32,000 nt of DNA from positions 6,984-38,983 of the forward strand of contig SVGT01000013.1 in the NCBI GenBank assembly GCA_015056175.1, written 5' to 3'. Under the pieces are notes generated by a model. The model was not told where the DNA came from and did no database searches. It was given only the letters and a program-made list of their open reading frames with translations. Made by a program: the position numbers and the translations under genes. How positions within the stretch are numbered: position 1 is the first letter of the stretch; the number at the start of each line of letters is the position of its first letter. Below are positions 3,866 to 30,515 of this stretch, in pieces. This stretch comes from Clostridiales bacterium (GTDB lineage Bacteria > Bacillota > Clostridia > Christensenellales > Aristaeellaceae).

Positions 3866-5413
3866 TCAGCGCAATTCCTCCGGGGAGGCTTCACAGAGCC
3901 CCTGTGCGTTCAAAAGCAGGATGCGCCCCGGCCACATGTCCATCAGCTTTCGGTCGTGGGTGACGCAGAGCACCGCGCCCGGGAAGGACACGATCATCTC
4001 CCGGAACACGGGGGCGGACAGGGGCGACAGATTGCGGGTGGGCTCGTCCAGCACCAGCACGTTGGCCTGGGTGAGGATCATGTGCAGCAGAAGCAGCTTG
4101 GCCTTCTGCCCGCCGGAAAGATCCCGGATGGGATGGGTCATTTCGTCCCGCGTCAGCTTCATGGCGCCCAGGTACGTGCGTATCTTGGTCAACTGCTCCT
4201 TATCGCCCCGGGTGTGGAGGAACTGAATGGGAGTATGATCCTCCGGCAGCAGCTCCTCGTAGCGCTGGGGCATGTACACGGCGCGCAGATCCTGTCGGGC
4301 GGTGAGATGGGCGGCGATATGACGCAGCAGCGTGGTTTTGCCGCAGCCGTTGTCGCCCAGGATGATCACCTTTTCCGGGCCGGTCATGCGCAGGAAGATA
4401 TTGTCCGCCAGCAGCCGATCCTCCGTTTCCAGGCGGGGAACATGCATTTCCAGCACCGTTTTGCCCGCGGGGACGGTGTTATCGCCCTCAAATGCGGCGT
4501 CGATGGCGTATTCCACGTTGGGGCGCTGGGTTTGATCCTCCCTTTCCCGTTCAAACCGCTTTTCCAGGGATTTGACGGCCTTCATTTTCTTTTTCAGCAG
4601 CCGCCCGGTGTGGGGATCCTGACGGGAAACGGAGGCCTGCGCGTGCTCCACGGCCTGCTGGATGCGGTCGAACTTTTCCTGACGGATGCGCTCCTGACGG
4701 CGCTCGTTTTGCGCCTGCTGCTCCTGCTGGGCGATGGCGCGGGCACGGGTCGCCATATAGGTATCGTAGGAGGTGCGGGAAAGCGTCCAGCGGGGGGTGG
4801 TTTTATGGTAGGCCATTTCCAGATGCAAAACGCCTGTGGCCGTGCGGGAGAGCAGCGTTTCATCGTGGGAGATAAAGAGCACGGGCAGATGGCAGGTGCA
4901 CAGAAAATGCTCCAGGAAGCGAAGGGTGGGAAGATCCAGATCGTTGCCCGGCTCGTCCAGAAGCAGCATGGTGGGTTCCTGCGCAAGCACCAGCAGCAAT
5001 TGCAGCTTGACCTTTTCGCCGCCGGAGAGCGTTTGCAGCATCTGGGAGGAAAAGGGGAGCGAGGGATCCATGCGGAGCTGGGCGCACAGCCGGTTAAGAT
5101 CAGCTGGCGAGAGCGCCTGGAAGGCGTCGCAGCGCATGCAGTATTCGTACACGGGCAGGGCGCGGCATGCTTCCGGGATCTCCTGGGGCAGGTAGCCCAG
5201 CTTTTCGCCGGGGGTATCGATGCGGCCCGTCACGCGGGCGTAGCCGGAAATCAGATTGGCATCAAAAATGGCCTTGAGCAGGGTGGACTTGCCGTTGCCC
5301 TCCTCGCCGATGAGGGCCAGACGATCCTGCCCGGACAGGGTAAAGGAAAGATCGTCAATGAGGACGCGCAGGTCTTTTTCGTGGGTGAGGGTCAGATTGC
5401 GTACAGAAAGCAT
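3866..5413 (-). CDS. ABC-F family ATPase (two ABC domains, no TM domain); candidate ribosome-protection (ARE) type
   Basis: Walker A GEEGNGKST and GDNGCGKTT; signatures LSGGEKVKL and LSGGQKAKL. A Q/R/E-rich interdomain linker is present (AIAQQEQQAQNERRQERIRQEKF...). 515 aa. An attenuator lies upstream. Confidence 0.9.
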   Translation of the reverse strand: MLSVRNLTLTHEKDLRVLIDDLSFTLSGQDRLALIGEEGNGKSTLLKAIFDANLISGYARVTGRIDTPGEKLGYLPQEIPEACRALPVYEYCMRCDAFQALSPADLNRLCAQLRMDPSLPFSSQMLQTLSGGEKVKLQLLLVLAQEPTMLLLDEPGNDLDLPTLRFLEHFLCTCHLPVLFISHDETLLSRTATGVLHLEMAYHKTTPRWTLSRTSYDTYMATRARAIAQQEQQAQNERRQERIRQEKFDRIQQAVEHAQASVSRQDPHTGRLLKKKMKAVKSLEKRFEREREDQTQRPNVEYAIDAAFEGDNTVPAGKTVLEMHVPRLETEDRLLADNIFLRMTGPEKVIILGDNGCGKTTLLRHIAAHLTARQDLRAVYMPQRYEELLPEDHTPIQFLHTRGDKEQLTKIRTYLGAMKLTRDEMTHPIRDLSGGQKAKLLLLHMILTQANVLVLDEPTRNLSPLSAPVFREMIVSFPGAVLCVTHDRKLMDMWPGRILLLNAQGLCEASPEELR

Positions 5414-10637: not shown

Positions 10638-12009
10638 TGACGGGACGGGCGGGCGCATCGCACTTGTGGCAGGCCAGCAGGTTTTTGAAGGTGGTATTGT
10701 TGATATCGGAGAAGTAGAAGGCCTTGAGTGGCAGATATTCCTCCGCAACGGAGTAGCAATCCTCCTTGGCGTGGTAGTACAACCCGCCGTCGGGATTGTA
10801 ATACAGCAGCATATTGGCGGACATGGTGGGCGCTTCCGTAGGCGCCTGGGTGGGCACGAAGGGAATGGTGCCCGCCTCCTGATCGCCGGGCTGGGGCGTG
10901 GTCTGCATCTTGGTGGCGCCCAGGGAGTTGGGATCCACATACCAGGTATCGTTGATGCGCAGCATGAGCACCTGCATCTGGTAATAGGCAGGCTCGCTGG
11001 TGTTCTTTTTGTCAATGAGCACGGTGAGGGTCACGGTGCGGGAGGTATCGGCCTCGCTCCCCGAGATCTTTTCCACGGTGTAGCTCATGGGGGTGCGGTT
11101 GGCCAGGAGGATGAACAGCTCGGACTTGGGATTTTCCAAATTATTCACCCAGGAGGGCAGGCACAACTCCAGCATGGAATCCAGCTGGCTTTCGGCCCAG
11201 TAGTTCATGAAGGTATTCAGGCGCATGGAGGCCATGGAGGCGTCCGGGGAATCCGTGGCGGAAATTTCGGGCACGGAATCCTGGGGGGTATCGTCCGTCT
11301 GGGGGTTCTGGGCGGATACGGAGTTCAGGGCGCTGTCGCCGCCAAAGAGGGCGGAGGCGTCCACATTGCCGGAGGCCGCGAGGCTGTCCCGGGCGGGCAG
11401 GGAAAAGAGCAGCGCCACGGCGATGACCACCAGCAGCGCGCCGTAGATCAGCGCCAGGGTGTAGCGGGCGTTTTTGCTGAAGGGACGGGCAAAGAGCAGA
11501 ATGCCGATGACCGCAAGGGCGCAGGCGATGAACACGCCGTGGAGCACCACATTGCCCATCAAAAGCGCCAGCAGGAACAAAACGGGCAGCGCCAGTGTGA
11601 CCACGGCGATGAGCCAGTTATAGCTCTTGCGGCGGGCGGGCTGCTGTACCTGCTGCTGCGACTGCGCCTGGGAGGTAAAGTGCTGCTGATAGGGCTGCTG
11701 GGGCGCAGGGTTTGCAAACTGCTGCTGGTAGGGGTTCTGGTAGGGCGGCGTCTGGTACGGCTGCCCGTAGGGCTGCTGATAGGGCTGCTGGGGGGCAGGA
11801 TTTGCAAACTGCTGCCCGTATTGCTGCTGCTGGGGATATTGCTGCTGGGGCGCTTGCCCGTATTGCTGCTGCTGCATCTGAGGCGCGTTTTGCGCCTGGG
11901 TCTGCGGCTGCCGGGGCTGCTGGGGCGCGCTTTTTTGCAGGGGTTTATTTTTTAGTCCGTACAGCGGGGCGCTGGTATAGCGGTTGCGGTTGGAGCTCAC
12001 AAAAGTCAT
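10624..12009 (-). CDS. membrane protein with a Q/P/Y-rich repetitive N-terminus and an extracytoplasmic C-terminal domain
   Basis: Starts at the ATG at 12009 (a GTG at 12000 is also possible). Low-complexity QQPYQQ repeats are followed by 3-4 TM helices (NWLIAVVTLALPVLFLLALLMG...) and then a globular C-terminus ending in a CHKC motif. Confidence 0.7.
   Translation of the reverse strand: MTFVSSNRNRYTSAPLYGLKNKPLQKSAPQQPRQPQTQAQNAPQMQQQQYGQAPQQQYPQQQQYGQQFANPAPQQPYQQPYGQPYQTPPYQNPYQQQFANPAPQQPYQQHFTSQAQSQQQVQQPARRKSYNWLIAVVTLALPVLFLLALLMGNVVLHGVFIACALAVIGILLFARPFSKNARYTLALIYGALLVVIAVALLFSLPARDSLAASGNVDASALFGGDSALNSVSAQNPQTDDTPQDSVPEISATDSPDASMASMRLNTFMNYWAESQLDSMLELCLPSWVNNLENPKSELFILLANRTPMSYTVEKISGSEADTSRTVTLTVLIDKKNTSEPAYYQMQVLMLRINDTWYVDPNSLGATKMQTTPQPGDQEAGTIPFVPTQAPTEAPTMSANMLLYYNPDGGLYYHAKEDCYSVAEEYLPLKAFYFSDINNTTFKNLLACHKCDAPARPVITGN
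11683..11815 (-). repeat. intragenic direct repeat (43-nt units, 90-nt period)
   Basis: 11683-11725 and 11773-11815 match at 41/43 nt. Both encode QQFANPAPQQPYQQ on the minus strand. Confidence 0.8.
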
Positions 12010-12316: not shown

Positions 12317-13750
12317 ATGTCGGAACGGACAAAGGCGCAGGGCAGGTTTAACAAATGGCTCTGCGGACTGTTTGACAGTGAGATGTTTACCACCAAGGAA
12401 CTGCTGGGCATGTTTTTTCCCCTTTTGCTGGACCAGTTCTCCATCCACATTATCGGCGTTTTATCCTCCTCGCTGGTCTCCTCGGTAGGCCAGGAAGCCA
12501 TCGCTGCCGTCAGCATGGTGAACTCCATGGGCTTTCTGGTGACGGCCGTCATGTTCGCTCTGGGCGCGGGCGGCGGCGTGGTGATCGCCCAGGCCAAGGG
12601 CAGCGGCGATGAAAAACGGCTGCGCCATGCCGTGGGCAATACCACCATGCTGGCCACCGGCTGCATGCTGGTGCTCTCTACGCTGCTGTACACGTTTGCA
12701 GAGCCTGTGGTGGGGATCATCTACCCCAACGCCGAGCCCATCCTGAAGGAATACGCGGTGCACTACCTGAAGCTGAACATGCTCTCCCAGGTGCCCTACG
12801 CCGTGTTCCACGCCATTTTTACCTCCTTCCGCAGCGTGGGCGACAGCAAATCCTCCCTGGTGCTGACCATCTTCATCAACGTGAGCCATCTGCTTTTGTC
12901 CCTTTTGTTCATCAACGTGCTGGGCATGGGCGTGACGGGCTCCGGGCTTTCGCTGATCGTGGCCCGCTCCATCGGCTGCGTGGTGGCCCTGATCTGGATC
13001 TTCCGTCCCCGGGGCTACCTGCACATTTCCGTGCACGACTTTTTCAAGTGGGATTTGTCCACGGTGAAGCCCATTGTGAAGCTGGGCATTCCCTTCTGCA
13101 TTGAGCAGATTTTGTTCCAGGGCGGCATGCTGATGGTGCAGGGGTATCTCAGCTCCTGGGGCGATACGCCGCAGATGGGCACCATGGCCCTGGCGGCTCA
13201 CGCCGTGGCCTCCTCCCTGATGAACCTGTACCAGGCCAGCGCCAACTGCGTGACCACCATGACGGGCACGGTGTGCGGCCAGTGCATCGGCGCAGGCAAA
13301 ATTGAGCTGTGCAAGCGCTACAACCGCAGCATGATCAAGGGCGGCAGACTGGTGCTGCTCATCACCGTGCTGGTGCTCTTCCCGCTTTCTCCCCTGCTGC
13401 TCAAGCTCTACCACCCCAATCCCGACGCCATGGGCATCATCTACAGCATTCTGGCGGTGGCCGTGCTGCCCATGCCCATCGTGTGGTGCAACGCCTTTGT
13501 GACCCCCACCATGCTGCGCAGCGCAGGCGACGTAAAGTACACCACCTACGTATCGCTGCTGGTGATGGTGATCGGCCGCGTGGTGCTGGGCTACATCTTC
13601 ACCATTGTGTTCAACCTGGGCCCTGTGGGCGTGTGGCTGGGTATGCTGGTGGAATGGCTCATCCGCGTGGTGCTGATGGAAAAGCGCTTCAAGAGCGGAA
13701 AATGGACCGCCTTCATCGAGGAAAAATACAGGCAAAAGCCCGCAGGCTAA
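12317..13750 (+). CDS. MATE family efflux transporter (paralog 1)
   Basis: 477 aa with about 12 TM helices. MATE-like blocks are present (PLLLDQFSIHIIGVLSSSLVSSVGQEAIAAVSMVN, ...VGVWLGMLVEWLIRVV). RBS AAGGAAGG. Confidence 0.9.
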   Translation: MSERTKAQGRFNKWLCGLFDSEMFTTKELLGMFFPLLLDQFSIHIIGVLSSSLVSSVGQEAIAAVSMVNSMGFLVTAVMFALGAGGGVVIAQAKGSGDEKRLRHAVGNTTMLATGCMLVLSTLLYTFAEPVVGIIYPNAEPILKEYAVHYLKLNMLSQVPYAVFHAIFTSFRSVGDSKSSLVLTIFINVSHLLLSLLFINVLGMGVTGSGLSLIVARSIGCVVALIWIFRPRGYLHISVHDFFKWDLSTVKPIVKLGIPFCIEQILFQGGMLMVQGYLSSWGDTPQMGTMALAAHAVASSLMNLYQASANCVTTMTGTVCGQCIGAGKIELCKRYNRSMIKGGRLVLLITVLVLFPLSPLLLKLYHPNPDAMGIIYSILAVAVLPMPIVWCNAFVTPTMLRSAGDVKYTTYVSLLVMVIGRVVLGYIFTIVFNLGPVGVWLGMLVEWLIRVVLMEKRFKSGKWTAFIEEKYRQKPAG

Positions 13751-13757
13751 AAAATCA

Positions 13758-13792
13758 ACGCAGTCTCCCGCAAACGGAGGCTGCGTTTTTTT
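13758..13792 (+). terminator. rho-independent terminator
   Basis: ACGCAGtCTCC-gcaaac-GGAGgCTGCGT followed by T7. Confidence 0.8.
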
Positions 13793-13851
13793 GCACGTGT
13801 CGGAATACGGAAAAATATGCCGAAGAAAGCGGGAAAATGTGGAAATACCGA

Positions 13852-13879
13852 TTGCGTTCCTGCCATAATGCGGTATAAT
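13852..13879 (+). promoter_or_regulatory. promoter of MATE paralog 2
   Basis: TTGCGT (13852-13857), 16-nt spacer, TATAAT (13874-13879). The flanking bases align with the paralog-1 promoter (cgATTG..TATAATGGA). Confidence 0.55.
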
Positions 13880-13915
13880 GGAACTTGCACAATATGATGG
13901 AGGATGAGATTTTTT

Positions 13916-15349
13916 ATGTCCGAACTGACGCCTGCGCGCGGCCCCAGGGGTAAATTCAACGGCTGGCTTCACCGCCTGTTTGACAGCGAAATGTTTACGA
14001 CCGGGGACATCCTGCGCATGTTTTATCCGCTGATGCTGGATCAGTTTGCCATTCACCTGATCATGACGCTGAGTACGTCGCTGGTGTCCTCGGTGGGTCA
14101 GGAGGCGCTGGCTGCCGTCAGCATGGTGAACACCCTTTCCTATGTGGTGACGGCCGTGATGTTTGCCCTCAGTGCGGGCGGCGGCGTGATCATCGCCCAG
14201 GCCAAGGGCAGCGGCGATGAGGACAGGCTGCACAAGGCCATTGCCACCACGGCCATGATCTCCTCTGCCGTGATGCTGGTTTTGTCCATCACGCTGACGG
14301 CGTTGGCAGGGCCTATCATTGAGCTTTTGTATCCCCACGCAGAGCCGCTGCTCAAGGAATACGCCGTGCACTATATGCGCCTGAACATGCTCACCCTCTG
14401 GCCCTTCTCCATTTTCCACGTGATCTTTACCGCCTTCCGCAGCGTGGGCGACAGCAAATCCTCCCTGATTCTGACGCTGTACATCAATATCAGCCATCTG
14501 CTTTTGTCCCTTCTGTTCATCAACGTGCTGGGCATGGGCGTGACGGGCTCCGGGCTTTCGCTGATCGTGGCCCGCGTCATCGGCGCCATTGTGGCCATGG
14601 TGTGGCTCTTTGGCCCCATGGGCAAGCTGCACATGAAGCCCCGGGCGTTTCTGAAGCTGGATAAAAAGATGGCAAGGCCCATCCTGCGCCTGAGCATTCC
14701 CTTCTGCGCAGAGCAGATGCTCTTTGAAGGCGGCATGGTGGTGGTGCAGGGGTACCTGAGCACCTGGGGCGATACCCCCGAAATGAGCACCATGGCGCTG
14801 GCGGCCCATGCGGTGGCCTCCTCGCTGGTCAGCCTGTATCAGGCCACCGGCTACTGCATCACCCAGATGACCAGCACGGTGTGCGGCCAGTGCATCGGCG
14901 CGGAGAAGATCGACCTGTGCAAGCGGTACAACCAAAGCATCATCAAGGGCGGCAATCTGATCTACCTGATCACGGTGCTGGTTTTGTTCCCCCTGACGCC
15001 GCTGCTGATGAAGCTGTACAACCCCAACCCCGACGCGCTGGGCATGATCTACGTGATGCTGATGGTGGGCGTGTTCCCCATGCCGCTGATCTGGTGCAAA
15101 TCCTTTGTCACCTCCACCACCATGTGCGCCGCAGGCGACGTGAAATTTGCCACCTACGTATCCTTTGTGGTGATGCTCATCGGCCGCATGGCGCTGGGCT
15201 ATGTGCTGACCATCACGCTGAACCTGGGCCCGGTGGGCATCTTTATCGGCATGCTGGTGGAATGGCTGTTGCGCATCCCGGCGGTGGAATGGCGCTACAG
15301 ATCGGGCAAGTGGCTGAACTTCCTCAAGCAGGAAAAGGCGGCCGGTTAA
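13916..15349 (+). CDS. MATE family efflux transporter (paralog 2)
   Basis: Start refined to 13916 (MSELTPARG..FNGWL aligns with MSERTKAQGRFNKWL of paralog 1). It is collinear with paralog 1 over its whole length. Confidence 0.9.
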   Translation: MSELTPARGPRGKFNGWLHRLFDSEMFTTGDILRMFYPLMLDQFAIHLIMTLSTSLVSSVGQEALAAVSMVNTLSYVVTAVMFALSAGGGVIIAQAKGSGDEDRLHKAIATTAMISSAVMLVLSITLTALAGPIIELLYPHAEPLLKEYAVHYMRLNMLTLWPFSIFHVIFTAFRSVGDSKSSLILTLYINISHLLLSLLFINVLGMGVTGSGLSLIVARVIGAIVAMVWLFGPMGKLHMKPRAFLKLDKKMARPILRLSIPFCAEQMLFEGGMVVVQGYLSTWGDTPEMSTMALAAHAVASSLVSLYQATGYCITQMTSTVCGQCIGAEKIDLCKRYNQSIIKGGNLIYLITVLVLFPLTPLLMKLYNPNPDALGMIYVMLMVGVFPMPLIWCKSFVTSTTMCAAGDVKFATYVSFVVMLIGRMALGYVLTITLNLGPVGIFIGMLVEWLLRIPAVEWRYRSGKWLNFLKQEKAAG

Positions 15350-17267: not shown

Positions 17268-17312
17268 GATTTAGTCACCTCTGACGGAGGAAGTTTGATG
17301 GCGTGGGGACTT

Positions 17313-17971
17313 GGGGCTGTCCGCCCCAAACCCCGACCAGGAGGCTGAGCCTCCTGGACCTGCAGTGTTGGACGGACAAGCGTTATCATCCGGATTGCTT
17401 CCCAATGCGGCGGGCACTGTAGGGCGGGGGCTTGCATGCCTTTTTTGTTTGGGAAAAATGAGCGGATTTGTTGGGACATGTTGGAGCGATCCGCCGTTTT
17501 TTCCGTTTACGGAAAAAACGGGAACTTCATCGGCCAAGACCGTGAGAGAATGCATTCTCTCCACGGCTTGGATCGATGAAGGAGGCGCAGACGCGCAAAG
17601 CGCGTCCTGCCCCGGCGGATCGCCGCAGCGATGAATGTTGTTTTCAGATAAAAACAAGGGGACTGGTTGCGATTATAACAACAAGAAATAAGCGGAGCGG
17701 CAGCGGGAAGCTGACAGGAAATGTGTACAACCATGTCCGCTGCTGTGGGTGCAGGGGAACGGAGCCGAAGCGCGCCCTGGCCGGGCGGATCGCCGTAACG
17801 ATGAGTAGGGTTGGGGTATCTTCTCTACTGTTTTATCGGGAAATAGTATGAAATATCTTGTACCTGTGTCCGAAACGGTGGGTCAAGGGTGCTCAGCACC
17901 CTTGTAGGGGTCCAGGGGGCAACGCCCCCGGAAGTCCCTGCCGGGGGGGTGTGGGGCTGAGAAAGCCCCAC
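17313..17971. repeat. copy A of an ORF-free, hairpin-dense intergenic element of about 650 nt (unclassified; structured RNA or MITE-like)
   Basis: It shares ordered blocks with 29821-30461: 43/43 nt (17336-17378), 19/19 nt (17417-17435), 58/60 nt (17472-17531) and the right-end block (17933-17971). It has many perfect hairpins and no RBS-preceded ORF. Confidence 0.75.
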
Positions 17972-18023
17972 AAAGTCCCCGTTACGGGAGAAATGCAATC
18001 CTGATTTGGGCGAAAGCGAAGCG

Positions 18024-21694: not shown

Positions 21695-22777
21695 ATGGAA
21701 TATTTGGTTTCAGAATATCTCGCATCCGAGACCATAGACCCACTTTTCTTGGTGGGAGATGCTCTTGATGTATTAAAAAATATTCCAGATAACAGCATTG
21801 ATTGTTGTATAACAAGTCCTCCTTATTGGAACAAGAGACAATATGCAAATGGCGGAATAGGTCTGGAAAAGGATTACAATGACTATATTTCCGCACTTGT
21901 TGAAATATTTATGGAAGTACACCGAGTATTAAAACCAACTGGTTCTTTCTGGCTCAATATTGGCGATACTTACCACAAAAAATCATTGCTCAATATTCCT
22001 TGGAGAGTTGCAATTGAATTGACTGACCGAGGGTGGATTCTTCGTAATACTGTCATATGGAACAAAGTAAAAGGCGGTTTAGATAATACTGAAGACCGTT
22101 TAAGAAACATCTATGAACCTGTTTTTCATTTCGTAAAAAAAGCAAAGGGATATTATTACGATATTGACAGTGTAAGAAACACACCGCAAAGCACAAAGGT
22201 TGTAAAAGGTGCAGTGGTCTCTGCGACAGGGGTTACGGGTGTTAGCTACAAAAGAAAAATAGAGTTATCAACTGTGCTGACAGATGAGCAAAAGAAGAAT
22301 GCTTATGCAGCACTTGAGGATATGCTGGAAAAGGTCCGTCTTGGCGAAGTGTCAGATTTTAGAATGATAATCAAAGGAGCTCAGCGAACCACTCATTCTG
22401 ATTCTGAAAAGGTTTCCGGTCGTGCAAAGGAACTGCATGAAAAAGGATTCTATTTCTTAAAGTGCAATCCTAAAGGGAGCAAACCCTCCGATGTTTGGGA
22501 TATACTGCCAGAAGATACTCAAAAGCGAACCACTCATTTTGCACCTTATCCAGAAGATTTGTGCCGAACACCAATTATACTTACCTGTCCCAAAGATGGT
22601 GTTGTACTTGACCCATTTGCAGGAACAGGAACCTCTTGTTTGGTTGCATTAGAATACAACAGAAAATCAATCGGCATAGAAATCGCAGATGAATATGTGG
22701 TAGCTGCCAAAGAAAGATGCCAAAAGAAGGTGGAAGATTATGAGCAAAGTCAAAGAACTATTTGGGATTTATTGTAG
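21695..22777 (+). CDS. type II DNA methyltransferase, beta class (N4-cytosine or N6-adenine; SPPY favours m4C)
   Basis: Motif IV is DCCITSPPYWN near the N-terminus and motif I is VLDPFAGTGTSCLVA near the C-terminus (IV before I, so beta order; Pfam N6_N4_Mtase-like). RBS AGGAGG. The DNA is AT-rich. Confidence 0.9.
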   Translation: MEYLVSEYLASETIDPLFLVGDALDVLKNIPDNSIDCCITSPPYWNKRQYANGGIGLEKDYNDYISALVEIFMEVHRVLKPTGSFWLNIGDTYHKKSLLNIPWRVAIELTDRGWILRNTVIWNKVKGGLDNTEDRLRNIYEPVFHFVKKAKGYYYDIDSVRNTPQSTKVVKGAVVSATGVTGVSYKRKIELSTVLTDEQKKNAYAALEDMLEKVRLGEVSDFRMIIKGAQRTTHSDSEKVSGRAKELHEKGFYFLKCNPKGSKPSDVWDILPEDTQKRTTHFAPYPEDLCRTPIILTCPKDGVVLDPFAGTGTSCLVALEYNRKSIGIEIADEYVVAAKERCQKKVEDYEQSQRTIWDLL

Positions 22778-23576
22778 TGAAAATGCAAATGTGACTGGTG
22801 CTCTCGCCTCTCAAATCTGTCCATACTCAAATAAAAAGTGCTATAAAACGAGAAAAAGTGACCCCGATACTGCAATAGGCACTTGTACTGTTTCGTATCA
22901 AAACAAAGACATTATTATCTGTCCTAATCGTTTAACGGAAAACAGTCAAATATTTATGGATTGCATCCATCTCCTCACATTGCACGAACCAGGCAATGAA
23001 CTCTATGTTCTCCCCGAAATTTCAATTCCTGGTGGCAATGTTGACTATTTCCTTGTTTCTGTGAAAGATGGCAAGGTAAAAGATTTCATTGGAATTGAAC
23101 TGCAGACCATGGATACAACAGGCACAGTTTGGCCTGAAAGACAGAAACTGCTTAATGAATACGGCATTGCCGTTGATGAAGCAGATGTTAGAAACACAAA
23201 GTCTTTCGGAATGAACTGGAAAATGACTGCAAAGACCATTCTGATTCAGATGCACCACAAGACAAAAACATTTGAGAATTTGAACAAGCATCTTGTTCTG
23301 ATTATTCAGAAACCGTTTTTTGAATACATGAACAGAGAGTTTTCGTTCGCTCACATAACCGGTGCCAGAATTGGAGACTCCGCACATTTCCATTCTTATG
23401 ATTTTAAGAATATTGGTAATAGATTAAAACTGACCTTGGACACCAGAGTAAGTACAGATTCTGATGGTATTTTTCAATGTCTCGGTCTTAATGCCGAAGC
23501 AAACGTTGCACTCGAAGATATAATTGCAACTCTTGAGAAAAAACTAAGTGAAGAGTATCTGCTCAGACTGCAATAA
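22740..23576 (+). CDS. type II restriction endonuclease, NotI-family-like
   Basis: It overlaps the methyltransferase gene by 38 nt and has RBS GGTGGA 5 nt upstream. The N-terminal Cys cluster is ICPYSNKKCYK...GTCTV...ICPNRL and the block IGIELQTMDTTG follows. These resemble the CPF..C.K..GVC..CPNR and LEIQTMDFHG blocks I recall from NotI. Confidence 0.7.
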   Translation: MSKVKELFGIYCSENANVTGALASQICPYSNKKCYKTRKSDPDTAIGTCTVSYQNKDIIICPNRLTENSQIFMDCIHLLTLHEPGNELYVLPEISIPGGNVDYFLVSVKDGKVKDFIGIELQTMDTTGTVWPERQKLLNEYGIAVDEADVRNTKSFGMNWKMTAKTILIQMHHKTKTFENLNKHLVLIIQKPFFEYMNREFSFAHITGARIGDSAHFHSYDFKNIGNRLKLTLDTRVSTDSDGIFQCLGLNAEANVALEDIIATLEKKLSEEYLLRLQ

Positions 23577-25671: not shown

Positions 25672-26298
25672 ATGGCTCGAAAATGCCATAACGGCTGCGG
25701 ATATGCATGCGGCGGCTTTGTGCCGTGGAACGGCTGCGGGAATACCTGTGGGAATACGTGTGGGAATACCTGCGGGAATACTTGCGCAAATACCTGTGTC
25801 AACGGCTGCACGGAGGCTTTCCGGTTTGATCAGAATTGTCCCTTTCAGGGCAGCTGTCCCTATCCCATGACCTTTGAGGAAATGCTGCAGCTGCTCCGCA
25901 CGCTGCGCTACGGACGGCTTGCGGTGTGCGCAAACGGCCAGAGCTACGTGACGCCGGTGTGCTTTTCCATGCGCCGGTGCGAGGATACGCCCATCTTTAC
26001 TTTGCGGCTGCGCACGGACGGCTGCATCGCCGGACATCTGGAAAACGGCACCCAGGTCACCTTGCAGTTTGACCGGATGGTGAACGGCGGCGTGTGCACC
26101 GTGCAGGCTATGGGTCAGGCTTATGTGACGGGCAGCACGGGGTGCGTGGCCATTGTGGAGGTACGCACGGACAGCATGATGGGCGAGTGCTACCGCAATC
26201 AGGGCTGCGGAAACAACTGCGGCAACAATTGCGGGAACAACTGCGGGAACAATTGCGGCAATAACTGCGGAAATCCCTGCGAAAACCCCTGCAAGTAA
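25672..26298 (+). CDS. pyridoxamine-5'-phosphate-oxidase-like (split-barrel flavoprotein) domain protein flanked by CGNx Cys-rich repeats
   Basis: The N-terminus reads GCGNTCGNTCGNTCGNTCANTCVNGC and the C-terminus GCGNNCGNNCGNNCGNNCGNNCGNPCENPCK. The core (MTFEEMLQLLRTLRYGRLAVCANGQSYVTPVCF...VTLQFD...) resembles the Pyridox_ox_2/PNPOx-like fold. Confidence 0.7.
   Translation: MARKCHNGCGYACGGFVPWNGCGNTCGNTCGNTCGNTCANTCVNGCTEAFRFDQNCPFQGSCPYPMTFEEMLQLLRTLRYGRLAVCANGQSYVTPVCFSMRRCEDTPIFTLRLRTDGCIAGHLENGTQVTLQFDRMVNGGVCTVQAMGQAYVTGSTGCVAIVEVRTDSMMGECYRNQGCGNNCGNNCGNNCGNNCGNNCGNPCENPCK
25746..25820 (+). repeat. 12-nt periodic coding repeat (CGNT x ~6)
   Basis: The units are tgcgggaatacc / tgtgggaatacg / tgtgggaatacc / tgcgggaatact / tgcgcaaatacc / tgtgtcaacggc. 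The differences among the first four (CGNT) units are all synonymous; the last two degenerate to CANT and CVNG. Confidence 0.85.
26206..26292 (+). repeat. 12-nt periodic coding repeat (CGNN x 5, then CGNP and CENP)
   Basis: The units are tgcggaaacaac / tgcggcaacaat / tgcgggaacaac / tgcgggaacaat / tgcggcaataac / tgcggaaatccc / tgcgaaaacccc. Confidence 0.85.
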
Positions 26299-29750: not shown

Positions 29751-29784
29751 AAATGCCTCCTGATATGGTGTTCTTTGTGTGTAT

Positions 29785-29813
29785 ATGATACACCGAAACG
29801 GCAAATTGCGCAA
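29785..29813 (-). promoter_or_regulatory. candidate promoter of the M20 operon, between the gene and repeat copy B
   Basis: On the minus strand: TTGCGC (29813-29808), 17-nt spacer, TATCAT (29790-29785). Confidence 0.45.
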
Positions 29814-29820
29814 GCCTTGC

Positions 29821-30461
29821 GGGGGCGTTGCCCCCTGCACCCCTACCAGGAGGCTGAGCCTCCTGGACCTGCAGTGTTGGACGGACAGGTCTGATCGATT
29901 GAGATGTTTCCCAATGGGACAATACGGGGAAACGGAATGAAAAATGAAGGAATGAAGCGTGCCATGCGGCACATGAAGCACGTTCCTTTAGAACGCGTTG
30001 CGGCTTTACAGCCGCTGTAGGGCGGGGGCTTGCTCCCGCCACTTTGTTTGGGAAAAGCCAATGGGTTGAGTGGGACATGTTTGAGCGATCCGCAGTTTTT
30101 TCCGTTTACGGAAAAAACGGGAACTTCATCACCAAGAGCAGGAGCAAATGAATTTGCTTCCTGCCTTGGTTGATGAAGGAGGCCAGACGCGCAAAGCGCG
30201 CCCTGGCCCGGCGGATCGCCGTATCGATGAGTAGGGTCTCTTTCCGGCAACAGTGTTTCACGGGGAAAATGCATGTGGAACGGTGTACCTGTGTCCCGAA
30301 TGGCGGGTGCAGGGGGACGGAGCCGAAGCGCCGCCGGTGGCGGATACAGCGAGGCGGAGGAGTCAACCGAAACGAGCGATCGACCGGCAGGGAGAGCGCG
30401 ACGATTGAGGTTGCGGAAATCAGTACCCTGCCTGGGGGTAGTGGGGGCAAGGAGCCCCCAC
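29821..30461. repeat. copy B of the ORF-free, hairpin-dense element of about 650 nt
   Basis: It has the same block order and orientation as 17313-17971, with identical 43-mer 29845-29887, 19-mer 30015-30033, 60-nt block 30071-30130 and right-end block 30422-30461. It carries an extra segment of about 90 nt (29917-30014). Confidence 0.75.
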
Positions 30462-30492
30462 AAAAAAACCCCGCCTTCCGAAGAAGACGGGG
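30462..30492 (-). terminator. rho-independent terminator of the ROK gene
   Basis: On the minus strand: CCCCGTCTTC-ttcg-GAAGGCGGGG followed by T7, directly abutting the right end of repeat copy B. Confidence 0.8.
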
Positions 30493-30515
30493 TGAAAATA
30501 CCGCTTGAGGATGAA

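Follow-up and report, generated by a model that had tools for sequence, protein, structure and literature searches.

Two intergenic clusters and the blocks they share

The window analysed here, a 32,000-nt stretch of contig SVGT01000013.1 from a Clostridia MAG, contains two intergenic clusters. Each fills the whole gap between a pair of minus-strand genes (Pfam labels): cluster A (17313-17972) runs from YchF to ATPgrasp_ST, and cluster B (29818-30461) from ROK to Peptidase_M20. A weak hairpin after ychF borders cluster A on one side, and its other end lies 45 nt upstream of the ATPgrasp_ST start codon. Cluster B is flanked by the M20 promoter region and the ROK terminator. The blocks on which the original prediction was built were recovered in both clusters: a 43-nt block identical at every position (17336-17378 in A, 29845-29887 in B), a 19-nt block likewise identical (17417-17435 and 30015-30033), and a third block, given before as 58 of 60 nt, which we found as 59 nt with two mismatches (17473-17531 and 30072-30130). 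In dinucleotide shuffles the expected number of matches was zero for both a 22-mer and a 19-mer, and the sharing of blocks between A and B is real, far above chance level. An exact 22-mer of the 43-nt block had no match in the genome-contig and metagenome-contig collections, from both of which the source contig is evidently absent.

The order and orientation of these blocks agree between A and B, as had been claimed, but not across the family, in which modules are inverted, duplicated or missing (clusters C and D, and the L003 lineage). Nor does the notion of two copies of a fixed element of about 650 nt hold: at least four intergenic clusters are present in the same MAG and related ones in sister lineages, with module number, order and orientation varying from cluster to cluster. 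Cluster C (L109:1517-2332) is found about 10 kb outside the window, on the 50-kb contig to which both belong, and cluster D (L111:541-1362) on a different contig of the same MAG. Both share the modules M1, R1, X and the core with A and B in differing combinations; cluster C is without the core, has X inverted and carries R1 three times in two orientations. The units are separable: elsewhere in the genome they turn up in clusters that arrange and orient them differently.

Terminal hairpins, the four-hairpin core and strain variation

The left end of cluster A is an M1 module (17313-17378) made up of hairpin hp1 (17313-17327), the linker AAACCCCGA, hairpin hp2 (CCAGGAGGCTGAGCCTCCTGG, 17337-17357) and then ACCTGCAGTGTTGGACGGACA; it contains the 43-nt block. 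Cluster B begins with the same module (29818-29887), consisting of hp1 (GGGGGCGTTGCCCCC, 29821-29835), the linker TGCACCCCTA, hp2 (29846-29866) and again ACCTGCAGTGTTGGACGGACA, and reading GTAG-GGGTGCAGGGGGCAACGCCCCC on the minus strand. A second M1 near the right end of A (17860-17931) is inverted relative to the left one and comprises the compensated hp2 variant CAAGGGTGCTCAGCACCCTTG (17884-17904), TAGGGGT and hp1 (CCAGGGGGCAACGCCCCCGG, 17912-17931). This right-end M1 is about 80% complementary to the left-end M1 of B over 75 nt. M1, with its two hairpins and the 43-nt block, is also present in Roseomonas and in a Puniceicoccales MAG.

Beyond M1, the outer right end of A is an R3 GC hairpin (17949-17972, plus strand; GTGT-GGGGC-TGAGAAA-GCCCCAC). 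The R3 hairpin of B (30438-30461, plus strand; GTAG-TGGGGGC-AAGGA-GCCCCCAC) immediately adjoins the U-tract of the ROK terminator (30468-30493, minus strand). A right-end block common to both clusters had been proposed; what relates the two right ends is solely their GT(A/G)(G/T)-tagged GC hairpins. The GC stems of hp1 and R3 are 6-9 bp long. R3 is tagged GTAG in B and the L003 lineage and GTGT in A, D and L112, and hp1 carries GTAG, GTCG, GTGG or GCGG at the side equivalent to the R1 tag. Most of these tags fall inside the degeneracy published for GTAG REPs, with GTGT outside it (PMC3733652). The terminal hairpins vary in sequence and keep their pairing, and the hp2 stem shows a compensatory change from CCAGG to CCGGG. 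The TIRYT motif GGGGWSAS (PMC3733652) was considered for the cluster ends and rejected, as these read GGGGTGCA or GGGGTCCA.

The 59-nt block opens a 137-nt module of four hairpins, hereafter the core, which is bounded by perfect 11-bp inverted repeats (GCGATCCGCCG / CGGCGGATCGC). In A (17486-17623) the repeats lie at 17486-17496 and 17613-17623, with a T/A-rich hairpin at 17494-17521, a long one at 17525-17581 and a GC one at 17590-17606 enclosed by them; in B (30085-30219) they lie at 30085-30095 and 30209-30219. The perfect 12-bp hairpin ascribed to the opening block exists in A, but in B it is broken by a C-to-A change at its base. Cluster A has a partial second copy of the core (17761-17804, plus strand), namely its 3' part with the GC hairpin region and GGCGGATCGCC, fused to another module. 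In paralog D the core (L111:931-1068) is inverted relative to B between colinear flanks. As the B and D cores are 88% identical, this inversion is old. The core folds better than its shuffles on both strands (z = -9.9 on the plus strand, -8.7 on the minus strand), and its four-way junction is kept in seven distinct copies, in which 8 of 45 pairs are compensatory (two to three lineages). Within the ~580 kb searched, it is restricted to loci of the window's lineage. Module X (30319-30419 in B) has the opposite orientation in C and recurs in L019, L111 and L112.

Among close strains, these clusters are hypervariable intergenic sites. Some sister strains, with a ROK protein from the same 90%-identity cluster, have a ROK-M20 spacer of 861-945 nt and different composition; in others of this group it consists of two ordinary low-GC genes without repeats. 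No precise empty site was found at ROK-M20 among the sister strains compared, and no direct repeats indicative of target-site duplication flank A, B, L057 or L078.

R1, a GTAG-tagged REP, and RAYT-like genes

The 19-nt block is the 5' part of a palindrome of about 27 nt, GTAG-GGCGGGGGC-TT-GCTCCCGCC, which we call R1. Cluster B has a complete copy (30015-30040, plus strand; CT-GTAG-GGCGGGGGC-TT-GCTCCCGCC), and cluster A a truncated one (17417-17435, plus strand) with GTAG at 17419-17422 followed by the 5' arm and loop GGCGGGGGCTTGC, its 3' arm being lost. The stem of the B copy (30021-30040) has nine pairs, one of them G-T; REPs are likewise short (20-40 bp), GC-rich and imperfect palindromes. 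REPs carry at one end an unpaired GTAG (or GYRG/GTMG) tetranucleotide, and so does R1: GTAG precedes the GC-rich palindrome in all eight R1 copies of the lineage (A, B, C, D and L112). R1 also resembles what we take to be the Pseudomonas REP form, TGTAGGAGCGAGCTTGCTCGCG. At least eight copies in at least four clusters, all intergenic, occur in about 55 kb of the MAG and its near relatives; R1 is a singleton in each window cluster, and copy C has it in both orientations.

A scan for GTAGGGCGGGGGYTTRCTCC retrieved more than 120 metagenome contigs, a lower bound. Among the matches listed, R1 contigs range from 35 to 64% GC and have unique flanks on both sides of the repeat. With the window they share just the ~27-nt unit, except for L119, which also has part of module X. 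When two copies lay close together, 15 of 23 such pairs among the matches listed were inverted with GTAG outward, eight of them spaced 54-56 nt. R1 lay within or adjoining RAYT-like ORFs in 18 of 146 occurrences and 11 of 120 loci, again among the matches listed. Against the NCBIfam model NF047646 ('REP-associated tyrosine transposase') these ORFs score 68-70 bits (E ~1e-19), short of the curated cut-off of 80, and three of the five scanned match Pfam Y1_Tnp weakly (20.5-27.7 bits). R1 is a GTAG-tagged REP whose identical sequence is widely dispersed and associated with RAYT-like HUH-Y1 transposase genes.

No RAYT-like ORF was found in the window, on contigs assignable to the MAG or in the sister-strain loci, and mobilisation in the MAG organism is for this reason something we infer. 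The same metagenome (sample 3300031555) does hold a RAYT homolog, on contig L239, which differs in GC content and has only R1 in common with the window. In the Clostridia RAYT family itself, a REP pair lies in frame inside the transposase ORF and not in the flanking extragenic space. This embedded inverted pair brackets the HUH motif and encodes VGRGLAPAE and AGASPRPT.

Origin and significance of the clusters

No known RNA family had been recognised from the sequence, and none emerged here: searches of the window with Rfam (OLE, ROOL, GOLLD, HEARO, raiA, T-box and group I/II introns among its families) at gathering score gave no match, and neither did those of the elements in 14 related loci. 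In E-value mode only weak matches far under the gathering scores appeared, and the best of them (E = 0.0035, 24 bits against 49.5) sits at the ROK terminator beside cluster B. ARAGORN found no tRNA. Hammerhead candidates with CUGAUGA/GAAA-like motifs were rejected because U4 was missing and the motif lay within a stem. Folding energies of the two strands differ by at most 3.3 kcal/mol with inconsistent sign, and an attempt to assign a strand of function from wobble pairs or energies was given up, there being no consistent bias. On the gene strand, no promoter-like site was found inside the elements; on the plus strand, a terminator-like hairpin with a T-run follows R1 in both A and B. The description of the segments as ORF-free needs correcting, since long ORFs cross them, among them one of 206 aa across cluster B (29843-30463, minus strand); one element-crossing ORF is annotated in the MAG as hypothetical protein E7326_01285. 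The copies show no conservation at the protein level, and a protein-coding role was discarded, the ORFs crossing B and the L003 copies being without similarity. The clusters are probably not genes in their own right. The idea of a single large structured ncRNA is not supported: no Rfam family matches, helices differ between copies in order and orientation, neither strand is consistently preferred, and no promoter-like site was found on the gene strand.

We consider it probable that A and B are BIME-like mosaic clusters, composed of short REP-type palindromes that evolve independently and of lineage-specific palindromic spacers, in gaps that reach from a terminator to a promoter or RBS. In BIMEs, REPs alternate in orientation at regular intervals and are joined by a few conserved linker motifs; the clusters have REP-type hairpins in both orientations and recurring modules, with irregular intervals and long linkers peculiar to the lineage. 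Most of the cluster length (core, X, Y and spacers) is lineage-specific and not strictly REP-like. The proposal of a non-autonomous mobile element of MITE, PATE or BIME type survives in its BIME-like form, as indicated by the separate palindromes, the link between R1 and RAYT and the varying arrangement, and not as a single discrete unit.

A different kind of mobility, in which nested MITEs with long terminal inverted repeats are moved as double-stranded DNA by a DDE-type transposase, appears unlikely. It would suit the inverted M1 modules at both ends of A and the complementarity between its right end and the left module of B. It would likewise suit the compact units of about 270-290 nt in MAG RGIG7205 (L057 and L078), in which hp1-ACCCC...GTGTTGG(T/A)C at one boundary faces its inverse at the opposite one, and a multi-copy Roseomonas element of about 250 nt with M1 at its start and an inverted GC hairpin plus GGGGT at its end. 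However, no transposase lies between the inverted M1 pairs of L023 or L063 or in any Clostridia locus, a target-site duplication is not visible, and R1 is clearly an independent unit of about 27 nt. Moreover, the terminal hairpins keep their pairing as they vary, for which a transposase that binds double strands has no need. An autonomous transposon bounded by M1 was also sought in L063 and in L023, whose 4.4 kb have an M1 at each end in inverted orientation, and was dismissed for these loci, where the genes are housekeeping ones only. Local segmental duplication, with the second cluster as its leftover, would explain why one contig has two copies, separated by 12.5 kb, whose blocks follow the same order. 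It is contradicted by the further copies, which other contigs and other lineages carry; the genes on either side are unrelated, and units are common to distant taxa. Of all the explanations weighed here, we give it the least credence.

Two further alternatives concern chiefly the core. A new family of structured ncRNA, encoded by the whole segments or just by the 137-nt four-way core, is consistent with the folding scores, the conserved junction with its eight compensatory pairs and the terminator-like hairpin after R1; the compensatory changes in the core, in hp2 and in the hp2' variant would fit a structured RNA too. Against it, both strands fold equally well, no Rfam family matches, the apparent G-U excess is a product of ambiguous alignment of repetitive arms, and the sample is small (seven sequences from two to three lineages) and limited to the loci of this lineage. 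In D and the L003 lineage, the core is also inverted relative to neighbouring modules and flanking genes, and hence it has no fixed transcript context. This reading is accordingly quite improbable. Slightly less probable still is an inverton, that is, a core flipped at its 11-bp repeats by a site-specific recombinase so as to switch expression of a downstream gene. The perfect repeats at the core edges and the opposite core orientations between colinear flanks, seen on comparing the MAG's paralogs B and D and also on comparing lineages, are what it would predict. Yet each locus has one orientation in all assemblies (two for A besides the window, two for B and five for the L003 lineage), promoter-like hexamers were not found within the segment, no recombinase gene is present in the window or the flanking 18 kb (about 50 kb of contig), and the B/D inversion is an old one.

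Under the BIME-like reading, a tyrosine transposase was probably what spread the REP units, which would have been copied as single-stranded DNA hairpins by a RAYT supplied in trans. Insertions close by, duplications and recombination at short inverted repeats would then have enlarged the clusters and rearranged their parts; the 137-nt core, flipped between its 11-bp repeats, may be an example. If the clusters are transcribed as 3' UTR or inter-cistronic RNA, their hairpins would, by analogy with E. coli REPs and BIMEs, stop or slow read-through and shield upstream mRNA from 3' exonucleases.

The closest known counterparts are the GTAG REP super-family and the BIMEs of Enterobacteria (PMC3733652). 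They share with the window clusters short GC-rich palindromes whose 5' GTAG tag is unpaired, extragenic location downstream of genes and between unidirectional or convergent genes, and occurrence as singletons, inverted dimers and big clusters of variable composition that include spacer DNA, with sub-families distinguished by complementary stem changes. They differ in that REP spacing in the window clusters is irregular, that these consist mostly of long lineage-specific palindromic modules instead of short BIME linker motifs, and that the host here is a Clostridia MAG; Firmicutes are absent from the survey of Di Nocera et al. (2013), in which the hosts listed are Proteobacteria, Cyanobacteria, Chloroflexi and PVC (PMC3733652). 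REPIN-RAYT systems of Pseudomonas and E. coli (Bertels & Rainey; PMC5581495) likewise have inverted REP doublets of fixed spacing, as R1 does at 54-56 nt in metagenome loci, and are tied to a single-copy HUH-Y1 transposase gene. By contrast, the Clostridia RAYT family has its REP pair within the ORF, and the window copies of R1 are singletons in larger mosaics. Neisserial NIMEs/dRS3, Correia elements and pneumococcal BOX are also modular intergenic mosaics with units bounded by inverted-repeat hairpins, module numbers that vary from copy to copy, strong predicted secondary structure and possible effects on the stability of transcripts from the genes between which they lie. However, they have no sequence similarity to the clusters, live in other hosts and are built from defined sets of modules (boxA/B/C; RS/dRS3), whereas the clusters show no fixed grammar. 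OLE, ROOL, GOLLD, HEARO, omega RNA and raiA resemble the clusters in being intergenic, several hundred nt long and rich in stable helices; unlike these RNAs, the clusters have no covariance-model match and keep no helix order, strand preference or gene association.

Literature searches with hairpin, REP or peptide strings, or for MITEs or REPINs in Clostridia, returned no description. To our knowledge, REP and RAYT studies have dealt almost only with Proteobacteria. REP-type clusters are a known bacterial intergenic filler, here in a gut Clostridia genome without earlier description. For annotation, gaps of this kind (0.65-0.8 kb) should not count as ncRNA genes, nor as "hypothetical proteins" of gene callers such as E7326_01285.

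More tentatively, the clusters could have been scattered by a REP-RAYT system of gut Clostridia that is so far undescribed and has the in-frame REP pair in its transposase gene and M1 and the core as further units. If so, a GTAG REP of about 27 nt would be nearly invariant across many organisms of 35-64% GC, the RAYT gene itself would carry the master copy of its enzyme's substrate, and the cross-phylum M1 and the 137-nt core, which occurs either way round, would belong to the same single-strand-DNA mobility system. A REP pair embedded in a transposase ORF is an unusual arrangement. With a REP family common among Clostridia metagenomes of gut and termite gut, the range of hosts known for these repeats would become wider, and there would be a new case of domesticated HUH transposases co-evolving with their hairpin substrates.

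Mosaic clusters and their variation among loci

The window comes from a contig of 49,993 nt belonging to a 'Clostridiales bacterium' MAG (proteins MBE57768xx, locus tags E7326_). Segments A (17268-18023) and B (29754-30515) are intergenic and, as the original prediction stated, lie between minus-strand genes, with YchF and ATPgrasp_ST around A and ROK and Peptidase_M20 around B. Of the predicted shared blocks, one matches at 43/43 nt (17336-17378 and 29845-29887) and another at 19/19 nt (17417-17435 and 30015-30033), while the block claimed as 58/60 nt was recovered as 59 nt with 2 mismatches (17473-17531 and 30072-30130). The shuffled window contained no 22-mer or 19-mer matches, and the block sharing between A and B is real. 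In an all-against-all comparison of clusters, A and B were colinear over M1 (a two-hairpin end module holding the 43-nt block), R1 (a GTAG-tagged REP) and a 137-nt core. A carries M1 at both ends, inverted to each other, and an extra partial copy of the core's 3' part.

The idea of one 650-nt element in a two-copy family did not survive this comparison, as the copies are mosaics whose modules differ in number and orientation, and at least two further clusters exist in the same MAG, in addition to those on an ENA contig (L112) and in sister strains. Cluster C (L109:1517-2332) lies on the same contig, ~10 kb past the right end of the window. Cluster D (L111:541-1362), annotated as hypothetical protein E7326_01285, was recovered by searching a protein collection with the translation of a spurious 206-aa ORF spanning B; the same search gave the two clusters on L112. 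In C, M1 is accompanied by three R1 units of mixed orientation and by an inverted module X (also present in B and D), and the core was absent from C in the all-against-all comparison. Colinearity between D and B extends over 470 nt, yet the 137-nt core of D is inverted.

We compared the ROK-M20 spacer in sister strains, defined by a ROK protein within the same 90%-identity cluster. The spacer is 861, 912 or 945 nt long in one set and includes tandem ~240-nt units plus one or two M1 modules, with the homologous core in opposite orientation relative to the genes. In a second set it is 1588 nt long and contains two ordinary low-GC genes and no repeats. These small genes (L009:9328-10914; also L010-L012 and L014-L017) lie on the opposite strand, encode 195 and 191 aa with signal-peptide-like starts, and have no match in Pfam. 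The ROK-M20 site is a hot spot for turnover, though no matching pair of filled and empty sites was recovered. An M20 promoter-like motif (TTGCGC...TATCAT) and the ROK terminator stand directly outside the cluster and are retained in sister strains with or without repeats.

The Rfam check asked for in the original prediction gave no gathering-score match in the window or at 14 related loci, with the sole exception of a T-box leader (L078:7620-7840, 109 bits) in RGIG7205, a related Clostridia MAG, where it directly adjoins a compact element of ~290 nt bounded by M1. In E-value mode all matches were weak and far below the gathering score of their family, and the best one (E = 0.0035) lay at the ROK terminator beside B. 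ARAGORN found no tRNA, and ORFs crossing the elements had no protein similarity among them. The elements are neither known RNA nor coding.

Several other features of the window were recorded. Adjacent MatE/MurJ-type transporter genes (12317-15349) are diverged tandem duplicates with a spacing of 1608 nt and 73-77% identity. Tandem 12-nt units, first GGAATACCTGTG-like and then GGAACAACTGCG-like, form two runs (25727-25798 and 26210-26281) 447 nt apart, probably inside a repetitive coding region. Imperfect direct repeats of 39-75 nt, rich in CTGCTG/GGGC (11679-11928), are probably translated on the opposite strand as a Gln/Pro-rich stretch of low complexity. Genes for a NotI-like restriction endonuclease and an N6/N4 DNA methyltransferase lie between A and B (21695-23576; L109:18323-20204). 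A DUF559 (Vsr-like) gene is found near B, two genes downstream on the gene strand, right after the M20 and C39-like peptidase genes.

Fold and orientation of the 137-nt core

The 58-nt block leads into the core, whose perfect 11-bp inverted repeats (GCGATCCGCCG / CGGCGGATCGC) flank three hairpins: one rich in T/A, a long one and a GC hairpin. The fold is a four-way junction with z-scores of -9.9 (plus strand) and -8.7 (minus strand), and a covariance model run over ~580 kb found the core only in loci of this lineage. The preservation of this fold in seven distinct core copies, with compensatory changes at 8 of 45 pairs, would fit a structured RNA. However, the energies of the two strands differ by no more than 3.3 kcal/mol with mixed sign, and the G-U pairs are only apparent, being due to ambiguous alignment of the repetitive arms. 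Comparison of D with B also shows the core flipped between its repeats, with the outer flanks (CATCGATAC... and ...TCAAACATGTCCC) unmoved. These observations argue against a strand-specific RNA. Nor is the core likely to be an inverton that is still active, because each locus shows a single orientation across its assemblies, no promoter-like site is present inside the core, and no recombinase gene is nearby.

Palindromic units and RAYT-like genes

The palindromic units that make up these mosaic segments are separable, and one of them is a GTAG REP tied to genes for RAYT-like proteins (REP-associated tyrosine transposases, HUH-Y1) in other genomes. The complete form of this unit, R1, is GTAG-GGCGGGGGC-TT-GCTCCCGCC (30017-30040); the copy in A has lost its 3' arm. 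The tag is present on 8/8 R1 copies of this lineage, and the 19-nt block is the 5' part of this REP. A metagenome scan placed GTAGGGCGGGGGYTTRCTCC in at least 120 contigs. Among the matches listed, the sources were human-gut, sludge and other samples, contig GC ranged from 35 to 64%, and R1 flanks were unique on both sides in nearly all cases; the ~27-nt unit was all that these loci had in common with the window clusters, save for L119, where part of module X is shared as well. Among close R1 pairs in the same matches, 15 of 23 were inverted with GTAG ends outward, the usual REP-dimer (REPIN) pattern (PMC3733652), and 8 of these 15 had a spacing of 54-56 nt.

When E. coli RayT (L233:7638-8135) was used as a phmmer query against six-frame ORFs of every locus, all 10 matching ORFs fell within R1 loci, and none lay in the window or at the other loci assignable to its MAG. 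By blastx with the REP masked, R1 lay in or beside RAYT-like genes in 18/146 occurrences and 11/120 loci among the matches listed. The RAYT-like ORFs matched NCBIfam NF047646 ('REP-associated tyrosine transposase') at E ~1e-19 and 68-70 bits, below the curated 80-bit cut-off, and three of the five scanned matched Pfam Y1_Tnp (20.5-27.7 bits). The family has at least 1437 homologs at E <= 1e-10, the named ones being labelled Clostridia. Inverted R1 units stand on both sides of a RAYT-like gene in L188, and such a gene is followed by a 7-unit R1 cluster in L187; both represent the classical REP-RAYT arrangement.

In this large Clostridia family the R1 pair lies in frame within the RAYT-like ORF, one copy on each side of the HUH motif, where GTAGGGCGGGGGCTTGCTCCCGCCGAA is read as VGRGLAPAE and the inverse copy as AGASPRPT (L234:4121-4140 and 4289-4308, gene 4001-4516; also L226, L228, L235-L237, L239 and L241). 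Across six RAYT-like genes of 39-46% GC, DNA identity is 94.9% in the REP columns versus 66.9% elsewhere. In some members (P0027, P0029, P0032, P0034 and P0035) the segment after the REP, NEAAGASPRPTIMDIVCAYKSLTTRE, is repeated in frame as 2-4 tandem copies, a pattern that looks like tandem duplication anchored at the REP within the transposase gene. A conserved gene of 234-253 aa without a Pfam match is regularly found within ~12 nt 3' of the RAYT-like gene (L234:4528-5232; L235:4515-5276; L236:3021-3782; L237:823-1584), and a second R1 copy lies just past it in L235-L237. Another repeated short hairpin (CCCCTGCCGTCAGGCAGGGG and ATTATGCAT; L239:797-898 and 1720-1745) stands on both sides of a RAYT homolog, on a contig from the same source metagenome as the window.

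Two further GC-hairpin classes, R3 and hp1, are tagged in A and B at the side equivalent to that of R1. For R3 the sequences are GTAG-TGGGGGC...GCCCCCAC (B) and GTGT-GGGGC... (A); those of hp1, given for the minus strand, are GTAG-GGGTGCAGGGGGCAACGCCCCC (B) and GTCG-GGGTTTGGGGC... (A, left end). Besides hp1, the ~55-nt M1 contains a second hairpin that is invariant, hp2 (CCAGGAGGCTGAGCCTCCTGG), along with two motifs, ACCCC and ACCT. Scanning GTDB representative genomes for hp2 revealed six M1 copies on five contigs of RGIG7205 and M1 in many Roseomonas-group genomes (>20 loci in R. populi), with similarity up to 94% over 56 nt across the taxa found. M1 starts a ~250-nt multi-copy MITE-like element in the Roseomonas group and occurs alone, after terminators, in a Puniceicoccales MAG (L018-L108, e.g. 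L060:6100-6450, L018 and L074; L023, L029 and L034); neither had an Rfam match. M1 is thereby conserved in three phyla. The sequence of hp1 varies among copies and taxa with pairing always kept, and hp2 has compensated variants (CCGGG...CCCGG and CAAGGGTGC...GCACCCTTG). The RayT phmmer search found no RAYT-like ORF near M1 in 91 hp2-scan loci, and only housekeeping genes lie between inverted M1 pairs. At three loci of R. populi CN29 (L049, L088 and L098), the Roseomonas element has ~100 C in a row in place of its right half, probably an artefact of assembly or sequencing at this repeat.

Proposed spread of the units and possible effects on neighbouring genes

Among known systems, these clusters come closest to GTAG REPs, to REP clusters or BIMEs, and to REPIN-RAYT systems, and mosaics analogous to them are the NIMEs of Neisseria and the BOX elements of pneumococci. 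A 2013 survey of tagged REPs had no Firmicutes among its hosts (PMC3733652), Group 1 RAYTs in Clostridia were noted in 2017, and our literature search found no paper with these sequences. We infer that in this organism a trans-acting RAYT would copy the palindromic units in the form of single-strand hairpins, as is established for TnpA-REP of E. coli and has been proposed for REPINs (PMC3479197, PMC5581495). Further insertions nearby, duplication, and recombination at short inverted repeats may then have enlarged the clusters.

Cluster A ends 45 nt before the ATPgrasp_ST start codon, and no promoter-like site was found in those 45 nt, indicating that ATPgrasp_ST is probably transcribed through A or from inside it. 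In E. coli, REP and BIME hairpins in transcripts attenuate read-through and stabilise upstream mRNA. By analogy, the hairpins of transcribed clusters may dampen read-through and stabilise upstream mRNA in this organism.
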